Assembly (NCBI GenBank): GCA_964482695.1
Contig: CAYZYP010000001.1
Span: 4,143 to 68,142, forward strand
Direction of reading: 5' to 3'
DNA: 64,000 nucleotides
Origin: an uncultured Gammaproteobacteria bacterium
GTDB taxonomy: Bacteria > Patescibacteriota > Patescibacteriia > Magasanikbacterales > GWA2-37-8
This document shows, piece after piece, positions 4,808-22,349 of this stretch. The notes beneath the pieces were generated by a model that made no database searches, had not been told where the DNA came from, and was given only the letters and a program-made list of their open reading frames with translations. A program made the position numbers and the translations under genes. Position 1 is the stretch's first letter. Every line of letters starts with the position of its first letter.

Positions 4808-5221
4808 CTATCTAACTTTTGTTAAATCACCATTAATAATAATTGGTTTAACGGCTTCAATTTCGGTTTTGCAATATGGCATATCGGGAATAGAATTCCA
4901 CATAAATATTTTTTGGTTTAAAACATGGGCAAAGCCAATTTCCATTAAAGTATTACCGCCAACATAGTTTTTAATGTCATTTTTATCAAAGTTTAGAACT
5001 AATACCGCGTCCGCACCTTGCATTTTTTTCCAAAATTCCCGAATAGCGTCTTGATTATTTTTTTGCCGCAGTTTAATTTCTTCAATTTCCGCGTCGTTTT
5101 TACCGATCATCGGTTTGTGCAGGTCGGAAATAAAAGCATCGTGGCCTAGTTTATCTAGTTCATTTTTTACTTCTATCATTTTGTCAGTAAATTGCATCGA
5201 GCCGATTATGCCGATTTTCAT
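4808..5221 (-). CDS. Nucleoside 2-deoxyribosyltransferase / Rcl(DNPH1)-like Rossmann-fold protein
   Basis: 137 aa; MKIGIIGS N-terminus and GADAVLVLNF...GGNTLMEIGFAHVLNQKIFMW resemble the NDT/Rcl family motif (D..G...E.G.A...K). Confidence 0.45.
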   Translation of the reverse strand: MKIGIIGSMQFTDKMIEVKNELDKLGHDAFISDLHKPMIGKNDAEIEEIKLRQKNNQDAIREFWKKMQGADAVLVLNFDKNDIKNYVGGNTLMEIGFAHVLNQKIFMWNSIPDMPYCKTEIEAVKPIIINGDLTKVR

Positions 5222-5234
5222 ATAAATAAGAATT

Positions 5235-5450
5235 TTATTTTAATTCAAAAGTATAAACGACATTAATTATTTGATTTTCGTTTTTTACATCGCAAGAAAC
5301 TTGTTTATTGTTTAATGTGTATCGAAGTAATTTTCCATTAATTTTCACAGTCATAATCTCTTTTTCGGAAAGCGGTATGCCACCTTGCCAATCATATTCT
5401 CCTTTAAAATCTCCATTAATAAAGATTGCTTTGGTATTTTTTTTGATCAT
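5235..5450 (-). CDS. Hypothetical small protein (71 aa), translationally coupled to flanking genes
   Basis: ORF start 2 nt downstream of upstream stop codon; no recognisable motif. Confidence 0.35.
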   Translation of the reverse strand: MIKKNTKAIFINGDFKGEYDWQGGIPLSEKEIMTVKINGKLLRYTLNNKQVSCDVKNENQIINVVYTFELK

Positions 5451-5455
5451 AAATA

Positions 5456-5797
5456 TTAAGGATAAAATTTTAACTCGCAGTTTCCTCCTACCAGTGAATA
5501 TAATATGCTTCGGACAGTCGCGTCTGTTTCTTTGGTTCTTTCGGGTTGTGAGGTTAGTCGATTTTCTCCTACAAGGGGAGGCTTAATCTCAAGACGTTCT
5601 CCTCTATTCATTACCGACCAGCCTTTTCCTAATTTTTCTGTAAATGTAGATTCCCAATCCGCGGGTATACTTGTTGGGTCGGAATACGGACCCAATGGGA
5701 GGTTTTTAATCACATATTCATTCTCATGTCCTCCCAATCCAAATTCAATAGTGATATGTGGTTTTTGTAATTGTTCTTTTCCATTTTCTGTTAACAT
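5456..5797 (-). CDS. Hypothetical protein (113 aa), first gene of minus-strand 3-gene cassette; locally GC-richer
   Basis: ORF only; no family recognised. Confidence 0.35.
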   Translation of the reverse strand: MLTENGKEQLQKPHITIEFGLGGHENEYVIKNLPLGPYSDPTSIPADWESTFTEKLGKGWSVMNRGERLEIKPPLVGENRLTSQPERTKETDATVRSILYSLVGGNCELKFYP

Positions 5798-5886
5798 ATT
5801 GGTTTTTTGAAGATTAATTAAGAAATAATATTATATTTTCGTTTATTATACCACTCCCATACTCAATAAATCAATAAATTTAGGGT

Positions 5887-5915
5887 TTGACTACCACCCC
5901 AACTAATGCTAAATT
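5887..5915 (+). promoter_or_regulatory. Candidate sigma70 promoter for uvrA (TTGACT-17-TAAATT)
   Basis: ttgact accaccccaactaatgc taaatt, 17-nt spacer, ~35 nt upstream of uvrA ORF. Confidence 0.35.
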
Positions 5916-5948
5916 ACCCACATACCCCCCTAGACCGTCAAAAAGCGG

Positions 5949-8465
5949 TTGATTTCATGTTTTATGGAAGACAAAATCATCATCAAAGGCGCCAGAGTGC
6001 ATAATTTAAAAAATATCTCTCTGGAAATACCAAAGAATAAAATAACGGTAATTACCGGCGTTTCTGGTAGTGGTAAATCCAGTCTAGCTTTTGATACTAT
6101 TTTTGCCGAAGGGCAGAGAAGATATATAGAATCATTATCTCCGTATGCCAGGCAATTTTTGGGTCAAATGGAAAGGGCTGATGTTGATGAAATAAATGGT
6201 TTATCACCAGCCATTGCCATAGACCAAAAAGCCCTTAGCCACAACCCACGTTCCACTGTTGGCACCCTAACCGAAATTTACGATTATTTACGTGTTTTGT
6301 ACGCCCGCTTAGGCGAGGTATATTGCCCGCAGTGTGATTTAAAAATAGAAAAATTAACAACCGACGAGATGTTGGATATAGTTATTGGCCAAGCCGAAGA
6401 ATTAGACGAAAAAATAGTCACCATATTTTCACCAGTCGTGCGCGAGCGCAAAGGGGAGTATTACCAATTGTTATATGATTTCTTAAATCTGGGATTTGAT
6501 CAAGCGCGCGTTGATGGGGCGTTAGTTTCTTTGCATGAAAGAATAAACTTAGCTCGTTACAAAAAACATAATATTGAAATAATGATTGATAGAGTAATGA
6601 TAAGTGATGTCAGCCGGTTAAACGAAGCCATAGAAAGTGCTTTACATCATAGCAAAGGATTGGTATTGGCAGTGTTTAAAGAAAAATCAAAAGAACCAAT
6701 AGAACGGTTATTATCCAGTAACTGGTCGTGCTCTAACGATGGTTTTTCTTTTCCCGAAATAGAGCCAAGACTTTTTTCTTTTAATAGTCCGGCTGGCGCT
6801 TGCCCGGATTGTCATGGTTTAGGGAAAGTAGAAATGTTTTCCAAAGAAATTTGTCCGGTTTGCCAAGGCAAGCGTTTAAAGCCAGAAGCCCTATCGGTAA
6901 AAATTAAGCATAAAAATATTTTTGAGGTTGCTTCCATGACCATAGAAGACATGTATACATTTTTTATTCAATACGAAATCAAAATGACTGAACGCCAAAA
7001 ATTAATAGCCCATCACGCCACTCGCGAAATTACCGACCGTTTAAAATTTTTACTGGAAGTTGGTTTGGACTATATTACCCTTTCTCGCGAATCTCATACT
7101 TTGTCTGGTGGTGAAGCCCAACGCATCAGATTATCTTCACAAATAGGTTCGCGTTTATCAAACACGTTATATGTTTTAGATGAACCTACCATTGGTTTAC
7201 ATGAACGCGACACCGATCGCTTGATAAAAACTTTAAAATCTTTACGCGATGCCAATAATACAGTTATCGTAGTTGAGCATGATGAACGGACGATTAAAGA
7301 ATCAGATTATTTGGTTGACCTTGGCCCCTTGGCCGGCGAACATGGGGGAGAGGTGGTGTACGTAGGGACAGGTCTAGACCTGTCCCTACAAGGCGATAAA
7401 TCTCGATCTCTTACCATCCAATACCTCACCAACCAACGCCAAGTAGAGGTGCCTAAAAAACGTCGCTGGAAAGAGACCGAAGAATTGTCTATTATCGGCG
7501 CGCGAATAAATAATCTTAAAAACATCAATGTTAAAATACCTTTACGCAAGTTTGTTTGTGTTTCTGGTGTTTCCGGCAGTGGTAAATCTTCGCTACTTTA
7601 TGATACTCTTTACGAAAATATTAATAGAATAAAAAGTAGATACAAAACATTGGAAGGTGCCAGTAAAATTACCGGTACTGAATATTTTGAAAAGGCAGTT
7701 ATTGTTGATCAGTCGCCAATTGGCCGCACCCCGCGTTCTAACCCAGCGACCTATACTGGCATTTTTACCCCTATTCGCGAATTTTTTGCTTCTTTAGAAG
7801 ATTCGCGTACGCGCGGCTATACTATTTCGCGCTTTTCTTTTAATGTCGCTGGCGGGCGTTGTGAAGCTTGCGAAGGCGCGGGAGCAAATTTAATAGAAAT
7901 GCATTTTTTGCCTCCCGTACTAGTGCCGTGCGAAGTTTGTCATGGCAAAAGATTTAGCCGTGAAACATTACAAGTTAAACATAAAAAGAAAAATATTGCC
8001 GATGTTTTAAAAATGACAGTTAGCGAAGCCGTTAAGTTTTTTGAACATATTTATTCTATCACTGACAAGTTAAAAGTTTTGCAAGAAGTTGGTTTGGGTT
8101 ATTTACAACTTGGCCAATCAGCCACTACTTTGTCTGGCGGCGAAGCTCAACGTATTAAGCTGGCGCGCGAATTAACTCAGCCATTAGGTCGTCGAACACT
8201 TTATTTACTCGACGAACCAACCGTTGGCTTGCACTACTTTGATATTGAAATGTTGCTGATGGTAATAAATAAATTAGTAGATAAAGGCAATTCCGTTATC
8301 ATGATAGAACACAATCTGCATATTTTAAAGTCTTGCGACTATATTATTGATCTAGGGCCCGAAGGCGGTGAAAAAGGCGGGCGAGTAGTGGCCAAGGGCA
8401 CGCCCGAAGAAGTAGGCGATAATCCTAATTCTTATACAGGGATGTATTTAAGAGAGATGTTGTAA
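5949..8465 (+). CDS. uvrA: Excinuclease ABC subunit A (UvrA), compact form (838 aa); true start probably MEDKIIIKG at ~5964
   Basis: Two ABC ATPase modules (GVSGSGKSSLAFDT..., GVSGSGKSSLLYDT...), zinc-finger cysteines, LSGGEAQRI signatures; insertion domain region replaced by short linker. Confidence 0.9.
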   Translation: MISCFMEDKIIIKGARVHNLKNISLEIPKNKITVITGVSGSGKSSLAFDTIFAEGQRRYIESLSPYARQFLGQMERADVDEINGLSPAIAIDQKALSHNPRSTVGTLTEIYDYLRVLYARLGEVYCPQCDLKIEKLTTDEMLDIVIGQAEELDEKIVTIFSPVVRERKGEYYQLLYDFLNLGFDQARVDGALVSLHERINLARYKKHNIEIMIDRVMISDVSRLNEAIESALHHSKGLVLAVFKEKSKEPIERLLSSNWSCSNDGFSFPEIEPRLFSFNSPAGACPDCHGLGKVEMFSKEICPVCQGKRLKPEALSVKIKHKNIFEVASMTIEDMYTFFIQYEIKMTERQKLIAHHATREITDRLKFLLEVGLDYITLSRESHTLSGGEAQRIRLSSQIGSRLSNTLYVLDEPTIGLHERDTDRLIKTLKSLRDANNTVIVVEHDERTIKESDYLVDLGPLAGEHGGEVVYVGTGLDLSLQGDKSRSLTIQYLTNQRQVEVPKKRRWKETEELSIIGARINNLKNINVKIPLRKFVCVSGVSGSGKSSLLYDTLYENINRIKSRYKTLEGASKITGTEYFEKAVIVDQSPIGRTPRSNPATYTGIFTPIREFFASLEDSRTRGYTISRFSFNVAGGRCEACEGAGANLIEMHFLPPVLVPCEVCHGKRFSRETLQVKHKKKNIADVLKMTVSEAVKFFEHIYSITDKLKVLQEVGLGYLQLGQSATTLSGGEAQRIKLARELTQPLGRRTLYLLDEPTVGLHYFDIEMLLMVINKLVDKGNSVIMIEHNLHILKSCDYIIDLGPEGGEKGGRVVAKGTPEEVGDNPNSYTGMYLREML
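7362..7389. repeat. 28-bp perfect palindrome gtagggacaggtctagacctgtccctac inside uvrA coding sequence, in a GC-rich patch
   Basis: Read directly; replaces the conserved EGTPEE segment at the end of UvrA ABC module I (translated VGTGLDLSLQ). Confidence 0.6.
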
Positions 8466-8467
8466 TT

Positions 8468-8725
8468 CTATTGATAAATGTCATGAGTACCAATTGAATG
8501 GAAGATAATTATATCATTCTGTCCAAATTCAAAAATAATACGGTATTTGTAACCAATAGAGAATGACCAAAAATTTTTAAGTCGGCCGCTAAGTTTGTGA
8601 GTTTTTAGTGATGGTGCGTGGCAATTTTCACGAAAAATTTGTTCGTTTTCTTCAGCGGTATCTTTAATATTATTAGGCAATTTTTTATACTCCCGAGCAA
8701 ATTTGGGAGTATAGACGATTTTCAT
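8468..8725 (-). CDS. Type II toxin, RelE/ParE superfamily
   Basis: 85 aa; MKIVYTPKFAREYKKL...HKLSGRLKNFWSFSIGYKYRIIFEF..DIIIFHSIGTH pattern typical of RelE/ParE toxins; 3 nt after the antitoxin gene. Confidence 0.7.
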   Translation of the reverse strand: MKIVYTPKFAREYKKLPNNIKDTAEENEQIFRENCHAPSLKTHKLSGRLKNFWSFSIGYKYRIIFEFGQNDIIIFHSIGTHDIYQ

Positions 8726-15104: not shown

Positions 15105-15145
15105 AAAAACAAAAAAATAGGGGCAGGTTTAAAACCTGCCCCTAC
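15105..15145 (-). terminator. Rho-independent terminator downstream of rplS (ggggcagg-tttaaaa-cctgcccc + U-run on minus strand)
   Basis: Perfect 8-bp GC stem then tatttttttgttttt in minus sense. Confidence 0.55.
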
Positions 15146-17313: not shown

Positions 17314-17319
17314 ATATAG

Positions 17320-17393
17320 TGGGCATGGATGGACTCGAACCATCGACATCCACCTTATAAGGGTGGCGCTCTAACCAACTGAGCTACATGCCC
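17320..17393 (-). tRNA. tRNA-Ile with anticodon UAU (reads AUA)
   Basis: Manual fold of reverse complement: acceptor GGGCATG/CATGCCC, D-stem GCTC/GAGC, anticodon stem CCACC/GGTGG with loop CTTATAA, T-arm GATGG-TTCGAGT-CCATC, discriminator A; no encoded CCA. Confidence 0.7.
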
Positions 17394-19590: not shown

Positions 19591-20859
19591 ATGTTAACCT
19601 TGGAATTTGATTACAATTTGCCAAAAGAATTAATTGCCCAAACACCAGCTAGCCCGCGTGATTCTTCGCGTTTGATGGTGGTTGATAGGAATAATCACGA
19701 TATTCAGCATAAACAGTTTAAGGATATTATTCAATATTTATCCAAAGGTGATCTGTTAGTTTGGAATAACACCAAAGTTTTTAAGGCGCGATTACAAGGT
19801 CGGGTTTTATTGGACGAGGAGACGGACAATATTTCTGACAGGCGAGAAAAAAAACTGGGTTTAACGGACAGGATTTTAAACATGCCGGCAATGGAGATTT
19901 TTTTGGTTCGGCCGATGGAAAATTTTGGCGTTTGGAAAGTGTTGGCTAAACCTGGTAGAAAATTACGCTTGGGGATGAAAATAGTTTTTGCCGAGGATTT
20001 TATTTGCGAAGTGATGATTAAAGAAAGCGACGGGACCATTTTGGTTCAATTCAGCGAAGACGACATGAGCGTACGGGCCAAGGCGAATAAGTATGGAAGT
20101 GTGCCTGTGCCGCCATACATTGAATTTGATAGTCGCTCTGTCATCCCGAGGAGGAGGAACGACGACGAGGGATCTCTGTCTGGACAATTGAGACAGAGAT
20201 CCCTCACTTCGTTCGGGATGACAAAAGAGTTGGCAGAACAATATCAAACCGTCTATGCTAAACACGAGGGTTCGGTGGCGGCACCTACCGCTGGCTTTCA
20301 TTTTACACCAGAATTGATAGAACAGTTAAAACAAAAAGGCGTTGAATTCGCCGAAGTAACTTTGCATGTTGGTTTGGGAACTTTTTTACCGGTTAAGACT
20401 GAAAAAGTGGAGGATCATAAAATGCATAGTGAGTGGATAGAATTAACAGCCGCTAACGCGGATAAAATAAATACAGCCAAAGCAGAAGGCAGGCGGGTTA
20501 TAGCAGTTGGTACTACAACAGTGAGGACATTGGAGGGCGTGAATTTATTTTGTCATCCCCGCGAAAGCGGGGATCCAGCCCAAAAGTTACAGACACTGGA
20601 TTCCCGCCTGCGCGGGGATGACAGTCGCGTTTATTACTTAAAACCATATACCGGCGACATTAACATTTTTATTACTCCCGGCTTCAAATTCCAGATTATA
20701 GACGCGCTAGTAACTAATTTTCACTTGCCAAAATCAACTTTAATTATGCTGGTTAGCGCGTTTGTTGGCGACACCAATTTTGTCTCGGATTGTTATCAAA
20801 AAGCGGTAGAAGCTAAATATCGCTTTTATAGTTTTGGAGATGCGATGTTGATTAAATAA
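19591..20859 (+). CDS. queA: S-adenosylmethionine:tRNA ribosyltransferase-isomerase (QueA) carrying two in-frame palindromic insertions
   Basis: MLTLEFDYNLPKELIAQTPASPRDSSRLMVV...; 422 aa vs ~340 typical. Confidence 0.85.
   Translation: MLTLEFDYNLPKELIAQTPASPRDSSRLMVVDRNNHDIQHKQFKDIIQYLSKGDLLVWNNTKVFKARLQGRVLLDEETDNISDRREKKLGLTDRILNMPAMEIFLVRPMENFGVWKVLAKPGRKLRLGMKIVFAEDFICEVMIKESDGTILVQFSEDDMSVRAKANKYGSVPVPPYIEFDSRSVIPRRRNDDEGSLSGQLRQRSLTSFGMTKELAEQYQTVYAKHEGSVAAPTAGFHFTPELIEQLKQKGVEFAEVTLHVGLGTFLPVKTEKVEDHKMHSEWIELTAANADKINTAKAEGRRVIAVGTTTVRTLEGVNLFCHPRESGDPAQKLQTLDSRLRGDDSRVYYLKPYTGDINIFITPGFKFQIIDALVTNFHLPKSTLIMLVSAFVGDTNFVSDCYQKAVEAKYRFYSFGDAMLIK
20139..20223. repeat. In-frame palindromic element 1 inside queA (outer tgtcatcccga/tcgggatgaca, inner gagggatctctgtct/agacagagatccctc)
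   Basis: Nested inverted repeats read directly; GC-rich vs flanking; translated as SVIPRRRNDDEGSLSGQLRQRSLTSFGMT. Confidence 0.7.
20551..20623. repeat. In-frame palindromic element 2 inside queA (perfect 13-bp termini tgtcatccccgcg / cgcggggatgaca)
   Basis: Termini are exact reverse complements; same terminal motif as element 1; translated LFCHPRESGDPAQKLQTLDSRLRGDD. Confidence 0.7.
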
Positions 20860-22302: not shown

Positions 22303-22335
22303 GTATTATTTAAAGTAGGGAACGGTTTTAAACCG
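22303..22335 (-). terminator. Hairpin tagggaacggtttaaaaccgttcccta downstream of rplK (minus strand)
   Basis: Perfect 11-bp stem between rplK stop and yhhQ start. Confidence 0.4.
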
Positions 22336-22349
22336 TTCCCTATAAATTT

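Follow-up and report, generated by a model that had tools for sequence, protein, structure and literature searches.

In a 64,000-nucleotide stretch of a groundwater Patescibacteria genome (candidate phyla radiation, CPR; contig CAYZYP010000001.1, the whole stretch referred to hereafter as the window), the excinuclease gene uvrA carries a perfect 28-bp palindrome at positions 7362..7389 (no strand assigned) that is translated in frame as VGTGLDLSLQ. We conclude with considerable confidence that this element is a "double-foot" GTAG hairpin of the repetitive extragenic palindrome (REP) class, the partner of RayT/TnpA_REP transposases; it was probably moved by a RayT and is most likely a tolerated passenger of its host gene. 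This is described biology, an ordinary example met in a little-studied bacterial group.

The palindrome, GTAGGGACAGGTCTAGACCTGTCCCTAC, is its own reverse complement (14 + 14 bases, spacer 0), as the first-pass annotation of the window had claimed, and is the longest among the spacer-less palindromes of the window. Its arms (GTAGGGACAGGTCT and AGACCTGTCCCTAC) are laid out as GTAG-GGACAGGTCTAGACCTGTCC-CTAC, such that a GTAG foot stands on both strands and both the 5′ GT[AG]G at the hairpin foot and the C[TC]AC at the 3′ end are present. The predicted fold of the single strand is a stem of 12 bp closed by a 4-nt loop (−13 kcal/mol, z = −5.4 relative to shuffles), in agreement with the published REP rules of a fully paired basal stem of 7–20 nt and a loop of 2–5 nt (PMC6006769). 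The palindrome is real and non-random, far beyond chance: when up to three mismatches are allowed it has one match in the window compared with 0 in 100 dinucleotide-preserving shuffles, and by our own estimate a uniform model yields ~2e-4 such palindromes per 64 kb. An independent European Nucleotide Archive (ENA) assembly of the same organism (L129) has the identical palindrome, which is therefore not an assembly artefact, and the uvrA frame runs on unbroken to either side of it; although the exact sequence occurs only once in the window, these observations and the family membership established below reduce chance or artefact to a negligible probability. The segment around it is indeed a GC-rich patch (54% GC at 7300–7399 vs 34.7% for the window), in part through the conserved Gly/Pro/Ala-rich DLGPLAGEHGGEVV codons just 5′ of the palindrome, which are GC-rich in relatives too.

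The same 28 bases recur at unrelated loci. We scanned one genome per species with the pattern TAGGGNNNGGTYTN{0,5}ARACCNNNCCCTA, and metagenomes for the stem type of the uvrA copy (termed ACA after stem positions 6–8) with the pattern GTAGGGACAGGTYTN{0,3}ARACCTGTCCCTAC; each scan gave at least 120 loci, and the copy numbers and taxonomic spread derived from both collections are those of samples and hence lower bounds. About 10 chance matches would be expected in the whole species-genome collection (our estimate). Among 130 ACA-stem metagenome copies, at least 21 are the CTAG-centred 28-mer identical to that of uvrA; their flanks are unrelated, many lie on contigs of 31–41% GC, and several occupy AT-rich, intergenic positions, some between A- and T-runs. 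The first-pass annotation had entertained a decayed copy, and had named a chance palindrome found nowhere else as what would refute its reading; the element is instead an intact member of a widespread family, with at least 21 identical copies and at least 120 loci of the wider family. Hosts of that family include Dehalococcoidia, Anaerolineae, Omnitrophota, Nitrospirota, Planctomycetota and several proteobacterial classes, as well as Actinomycetota, Bacteroidota, Spirochaetota, Patescibacteria and others.

Family members share the consensus G-TAGGGGCGGGTTTGAAACCCGCCCCTA-C, which the 12-nt arms of the uvrA copy match. The G before and the C after the hairpin, which give the GTAG...CTAC feet and were not demanded by the search pattern, are found in 110/126 copies, and the three unconstrained stem positions are fully complementary in 111/126 (chance 1.6%; among the loci listed). 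A sequence conserved as double-stranded DNA, be it a DNA-uptake-type signal or the site of a dimeric protein, might also be symmetrical to the very centre, as these elements are (TCT/AGA, TTTNAAA), and might also keep an outer TAGGG and an inner GGT across phyla; the uptake sequences of Neisseria and Haemophilus pair up as terminators and are enriched in repair genes. Stem positions 6–8, however, vary freely yet covary between the arms, which argues for intrastrand pairing and not for a fixed recognition word, and this, with the specific association with Y1 HUH genes described below, makes a double-strand signal extremely unlikely.

Most copies lie outside long open reading frames (ORFs), the ORF spanning a hairpin having a median length of 133 aa vs 370 aa at control positions. 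Other copies are in frame, bearing out the claim that a housekeeping gene here carries a palindromic in-frame element: members of the family are translated within NadE, RsmE, MoeA, an MMPL transporter and a restriction–modification methylase, nearly all as V-G-x-G-[LF]-[KR]-P-x-P-T, while the identical 28-mer reads VGTGLDLSLQ within an Elp3-like radical-SAM protein and a glycosyltransferase, and a one-base centre variant (TTAG) encodes the same peptide in LepA. A scan of the window at Rfam gathering thresholds returned only a tRNA; in the literature, the hairpin and the peptides it encodes (among them GRFETCPY and GAGLKPAPT) gave no more than chance primer matches.

Two sister hairpins lie in the window itself, and the pattern TAGGGNNNGGT..ACCNNNCCCTA thus has three window matches as against 0 in shuffles. 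One, ATAGGGGCAGGTTTAAAACCTGCCCCTAC (15117..15145, − strand), is terminator-like, reading GTAGGGGCAGGTTTTAAACCTGCCCCTAT and then T7 on the − strand, and lies 21 nt past the stop of rplS (L19; 15166..15513, −); the other, GTAGGGAACGGTTTTAAACCGTTCCCTAT (22315..22343, no strand assigned), lies 7 nt past the stop of rplK (L11; 22350..22772, −), both genes being assigned by Pfam. Two of the three window copies are accordingly extragenic and 7–21 nt beyond a gene 3′ end, as GTAG REPs mostly are. Stem positions 6–8 read ACA (uvrA), GCA (15117) and AAC (22315), with complementarity kept in all three, and the stem type at 22315–22343 is that found inside most RayT genes (VGNGLKPFPT). Each of these stem subtypes recurs in many distant phyla. 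No second copy lies near 7362–7389 and all three window copies are singletons, rather than the inverted doublets that make up a REPIN.

The link to RayT came through a targeted search, since no protein family emerged as a regular neighbour of the hairpins when all ORFs at 120 of their loci were clustered. A sequence taken for Escherichia coli YafM had no Pfam Y1_Tnp match and was not relied on, but a weak match to it still led to the RayT gene of locus L100 (Desantisbacteria). At this locus and at L018, Y1_Tnp (PF01797) ORFs (Pfam, 1e-8 and 4e-7) have the hairpin both flanking and inside them. A RayT-like ORF is present at 20 of the 120 listed metagenome loci, with the hairpin inside the ORF at 19 of these, and at least 99 of the 120 best RayT homologues (for which JGI uses the name "REP element-mobilizing transposase RayT") have VGNG[LF]KPFPT or a palindrome-covarying variant after the HUH motif; the variants (VGTGFKPVPT, VGEGFKPSPT, VGDGLKPSPT, VVTGLKPVTT, VETGLKPVST) change as the palindrome requires.

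RayT loci from Moranbacteria (L124) and Paceibacterota (L126/L127), together with L128, share an arrangement in which one hairpin precedes the start codon by 20–50 bp and a second lies within the ORF, and the internal hairpin of L128 has the same 12-nt arms as the uvrA copy. A further perfect palindrome of 28 nt, likewise without spacer, lies upstream of the RayT gene at L128 (9941–9968); it shares the feet but has an AT-rich core, GTAGGGAACAAAAATTTTTGTTCCCTAC. A Patescibacteria-rich RayT clade (within proteins P0241–P0360) encodes exactly VGTGLDLSLQ, and within this clade one and the same position of the protein shows the internal REP in either of two frames, as VGTG[LR]DLSLQ or as RDRSRPVPT. 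Because the same DNA is read in two frames, conservation in RayT genes falls on the hairpin DNA and not on the peptide, which suggests that the transposase gene maintains the hairpin as DNA; P0278, P0360 and P0270 are among RayT genes with 2–5 tandem REP-derived repeats. RayT proteins of other genomes (P0121–P0360) carry the motifs NH[IFV]H, WQ and YIxNNP with the in-frame REP between HuH and Y, and judged by these motifs and by Pfam the associated proteins would belong to TnpA_REP subclass 2.4, equivalent to RAYT group 4.

That subclass was defined in a survey of complete genomes (Quentin, Siguier, Chandler & Fichant, 2018, PMC6006769), which assigned it the same three motifs, located it in "Cyanobacteria, Bacteroidetes and various phyla", described its REPs as "double foot" (5′ GT[AG]G and 3′ C[TC]AC) and found it unique in having REPs inserted into the tnpA_REP gene itself, without loss of frame, at a point between HuH and Y. 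Group 4 occurs in 17 bacterial classes with flanking repeats of low abundance (Bertels et al, 2017, PMC5581495). The uvrA element resembles subclass 2.4 REPs in having both feet, a fully paired hairpin, a low copy number and a distribution over many phyla; it differs in its even length (28 nt, centre CTAG), which puts its right arm into a shifted frame, and differs from the surveyed cases in its Patescibacteria (CPR) host and in having no cognate gene within ~73 kb. A solo terminal-inverted-repeat footprint, or a mini form of a miniature inverted-repeat transposable element with a TA duplication, had been a candidate identity and was abandoned for the REP/RayT reading after the RayT link had emerged, along with the published account of "double foot" REPs.

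Other described repeats are less close. GTAG-tagged REPs are mostly extragenic and near gene 3′ ends, and the intragenic ones, many of them in DNA synthesis and repair genes, sit inside ORFs without breaking the frame, as in Thioalkalivibrio uvrA, the two uvrA genes of Opitutus terrae and R. conorii uvrB (Di Nocera, De Gregorio & Rocco, 2013, PMC3733652). In those elements the GTAG tag is unpaired at one end, and over 50% of these insertions consist of dimers or clusters that add 20–30 residues, whereas the uvrA copy described here is symmetrical with paired feet and is a single unit with almost no gain in length. The E. coli REPs and bacterial interspersed mosaic elements (BIMEs) with their TnpA_REP (YafM; structure 4ER8, Messing et al, 2012, PMC3479197) likewise combine a GTAG guide and a hairpin with single-stranded DNA recognition by a Y1 HUH enzyme. 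E. coli REPs function near gene 3′ ends, where the two window sisters also lie, but are imperfect, bulged and one-footed, with hundreds of copies in BIMEs, in contrast to the perfect, two-footed and low-copy hairpin of the uvrA type. Rickettsia palindromic elements are reportedly placed in frame in housekeeping genes at surface-exposed, tolerant positions, and in this they resemble the uvrA copy; they are mostly longer, unrelated in sequence and found in Rickettsia only, and we know of no transposase dedicated to them.

The host gene is an intact ORF (uvrA, excinuclease ABC subunit A, 5949..8465, +), of which the database protein (P0001, 833 aa) starts at the ATG at 5964; its best named matches are the UvrA proteins of Magasanikbacteria and Parcubacteria. 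The palindrome supplies residues V467-G-T-G-L-D-L-S-L-Q476 of this protein. As the first-pass annotation had proposed, it lies at the end of UvrA ATP-binding (ABC) module I; this is a variable linker that follows the last strand of the module. The segment aligns with residues 542–671 of a solved UvrA (9gxk), which places the palindrome opposite "vaegtveeikq---npnsvtgeyl". Alignments and the DNA of relatives delimit a hypervariable linker of residues 469–481 (7368..7406, +) between the invariant G468 and S482. An AlphaFold2 model (mean predicted local distance difference test score, pLDDT, 80.9) predicts residues 469–482 as coil after a strand at 466–468, with pLDDT below 50 at 473–476.

Relatives hold a variety of other sequences at this point. 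Those at ~80% identity lack the palindrome and have AT-rich YAGPTKDIKKEKNK or YAGPTKDISKVKDSR in its place. The only closer relative among the matches listed (P0002, locus L001; 91% identity) carries another GC-rich stretch here, longer by 30 nt; eight further relatives (P0022, 23, 27–31 and 47) have 27–35 extra residues at exactly the palindrome point; and the uvrA genes of L130 and L131 have there a palindromic element of 85–100 nt with the ends GTCATYSCGAG...CTCGSRATGAC, as in the queA gene of the window. Since unrelated sequences and other palindromic inserts thus occur between G468 and S482, the linker is a permissive hotspot that accepts many sequences. The first-pass annotation had the conserved AEGTPEE motif of UvrA replaced by the palindrome, which holds relative to the more distant and the solved UvrAs, the only ones in which a canonical motif of this type is seen; the canonical peptide is in none of the best 120 UvrAs, and the closest relatives have the AT-rich sequences instead.

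At the same hotspot in the 91%-identical relative (L001:2758–2871), pieces of the 75-nt GC-rich stretch (GAAGGGGAG.., ..CCACTAC and GAAGGGGCAG) loosely resemble decayed halves of GTAG REPs. This stretch could be the relic of a REP cluster that the common ancestor of the two lineages carried.

Permissiveness of the site also bears on whether the hairpin serves uvrA as a selected cis-element, acting as a terminator or attenuator, as an RNase or translation-pause site, or as a RayT-cleavable switch on repair. In a terminator scan of the region no terminator-like site does better than the two sister copies, that at 15117–15145 ranking top with both a hairpin and a T-run (T7, − strand), and such hairpins at gene 3′ ends may act as terminators or 3′-end stabilisers; many of the intragenic REPs described fall within genes for replication or repair (Di Nocera et al, 2013, PMC3733652), and the uvrA palindrome is still perfect. 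That copy, however, is followed by AAGGCGATAAAT and not by a T-run, is omitted by the terminator scan, leaves the uvrA ORF intact and recurs as the same hairpin in the unrelated LepA, Elp3-like and glycosyltransferase genes; moreover, the unrelated sequences and other elements that relatives have at the site indicate tolerance rather than a conserved function. We therefore regard a selected role as quite unlikely, and the hairpin as most likely neutral, with no function for UvrA.

How the hairpin arrived is constrained by length. The window UvrA is longer than that of L002 by 1 codon and than that of L003 by 2 codons, and L003 has native TAT GTA GGG at the codons of the palindrome. One could thus envisage an origin in situ, in which intrastrand template switching at replication turned a native quasi-palindrome of uvrA into a perfect one and no mobile element took part: net length is nearly unchanged, GTA GGG stands at the same codons in L003, and G468, D472 and S474 match the residues of relatives. 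An identical 28-mer at the unrelated loci described above (at least 21) and inside RayT genes, with flanks unrelated to uvrA, makes an independent origin of the same 28 bases not credible, and the fit of the 12-nt arms to the family consensus adds to this; we judge such an origin very unlikely. A hybrid course, in which another REP was copied by a templated process primed on the native GTAGGG, we count with the REP interpretation and not with the in situ one.

On the REP interpretation, we infer that a RayT enzyme, whether present now, formerly or before horizontal transfer, placed the hairpin in uvrA. Single-stranded REPs are processed in vitro by their cognate TnpA_REP (Corneloup et al, 2021, PMC8266576). 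Either strand of the uvrA copy, once single-stranded, would fold into the 12-bp stem, 4-nt loop and GTAG foot, and so present the kind of substrate that Y1 HUH enzymes bind, cut and rejoin in the systems studied. Three routes of arrival may be proposed: a larger REP cluster may have collapsed; a deletion may have followed an insertion, with selection acting on the length of the linker; or another REP may have served as template for copying primed on a native GTAGGG of the kind present in L003. Several properties would favour survival of the copy: the frame in which it is read is open; the conserved Gly is retained, and a Thr matches the canonical "GT"; and its setting would be a flexible linker at the protein surface, joining the two ATP-binding modules, where almost any sequence is tolerated.

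Several observations weigh against this account. UvrA alignment confirmed that the site is variable and that relatives at ~80% identity lack the palindrome, yet a difference of only 1–2 residues from L002 and L003 speaks for replacement and excludes a simple insertion; as 28 nt is not a multiple of 3 and the net gain is only 1–2 residues, loss or overwriting must have removed ~22–25 nt of the native sequence. With TAT GTA GGG at the same codons in L003, some of the left arm may itself be native. There is no RayT-like ORF in the window and ~9 kb of additional flank (~73 kb in total), nor a further hairpin copy in that flank, and none of the best 120 RayT matches lies on the 203,376-bp contig. 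The three family members in these ~73 kb of the source genome are each of another stem subtype, and hence give no sign of recent amplification in this genome; three subtypes in one fragment do not fit the usual picture of a single lineage-specific REP family amplified within a genome. Finally, the mechanisms of REP dissemination are themselves still "poorly understood" (Corneloup et al, 2021, PMC8266576).

A bolder alternative, to which we give an outside chance, is that the linker is actively targeted in Patescibacteria by two unrelated palindromic families, the REP entering by templated replacement primed on the native GTAGGG, or else that uvrA retains the perfect hairpin as a switch by which RayT could act on nucleotide excision repair. 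If true, templated replacement would let REP hairpins overwrite coding sequence without a change in length.

The second of these palindromic families is represented in the window by two inserts in queA (19591..20859, +; identified by Pfam Queuosine_synth), both in frame and of the same family as the UvrA inserts of L130 and L131. The first (20137..20226) has the ends GTCATCCCGAGG...TCGGGATGAC and a perfect 15-bp inner stem at 20167..20205; the second (20552..20622) has the ends GTCATCCCCGCG...CGCGGGGATGAC. Inserts of this type (GTCATYSCGAG...CTCGSRATGAC) are similar to the uvrA copy in being in frame, GC-rich, palindromic and able to occupy the same UvrA site (L130, L131), and dissimilar in their length of 75–100 nt, their other termini and their lack of a GTAG foot. 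Neither the termini GTCATYSCGAG / CTCGSRATGAC nor a length of 75–100 nt is found in the 28-nt uvrA palindrome. The suggestion that uvrA and queA carry different families was therefore correct: the queA elements are ~75–90 nt with GTCATCCCGAG...TCGGGATGAC-type ends, as against a 28-nt GTAG...CTAC hairpin.

Some further features of the region are recorded here. Upstream of uvrA, a 0.7-kb gap (5222..5948) separates the gene from a 137-aa ORF and reaches 41–45% GC over 5500–5750 in a genome of 35% GC; the gene caller places ORFs of 71 aa and 113 aa (− strand) in the gap, neither with a Pfam match, and an Rfam E-value scan of 5200–5960 gave nothing credible. Downstream, between uvrA and uvrC, is a ParE/YafQ/HigB-like toxin ORF (weak Pfam match) with a 71-aa partner (8468..8725, −, and L129:3505–3980), in place of which the uvrA–uvrC interval of L003 and L130 has Gmad2/Germane-domain genes. 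The only tRNA of the window is a tRNA-Ile with anticodon TAT (17319..17393, −), an uncommon isoacceptor in bacteria.

An odd perfect palindrome in an essential repair gene is thus explained as a member of a described repeat class, and the double-foot REP class and its RayT partners are extended to Patescibacteria (CPR). The practical value of this is modest. Peptides such as VGTGLDLSLQ, VGxG[LF]KPxPT and RDRSRPVPT in CPR and environmental proteins become readable as REP-encoded and should be masked when sequences are aligned, domains called or phylogenies built, and the UvrA linker is flagged as an insertion-tolerant site. Identical 28-mers on many unrelated contigs, together with REPs inside their own transposase gene, offer a clean system in which to study how REPs spread.

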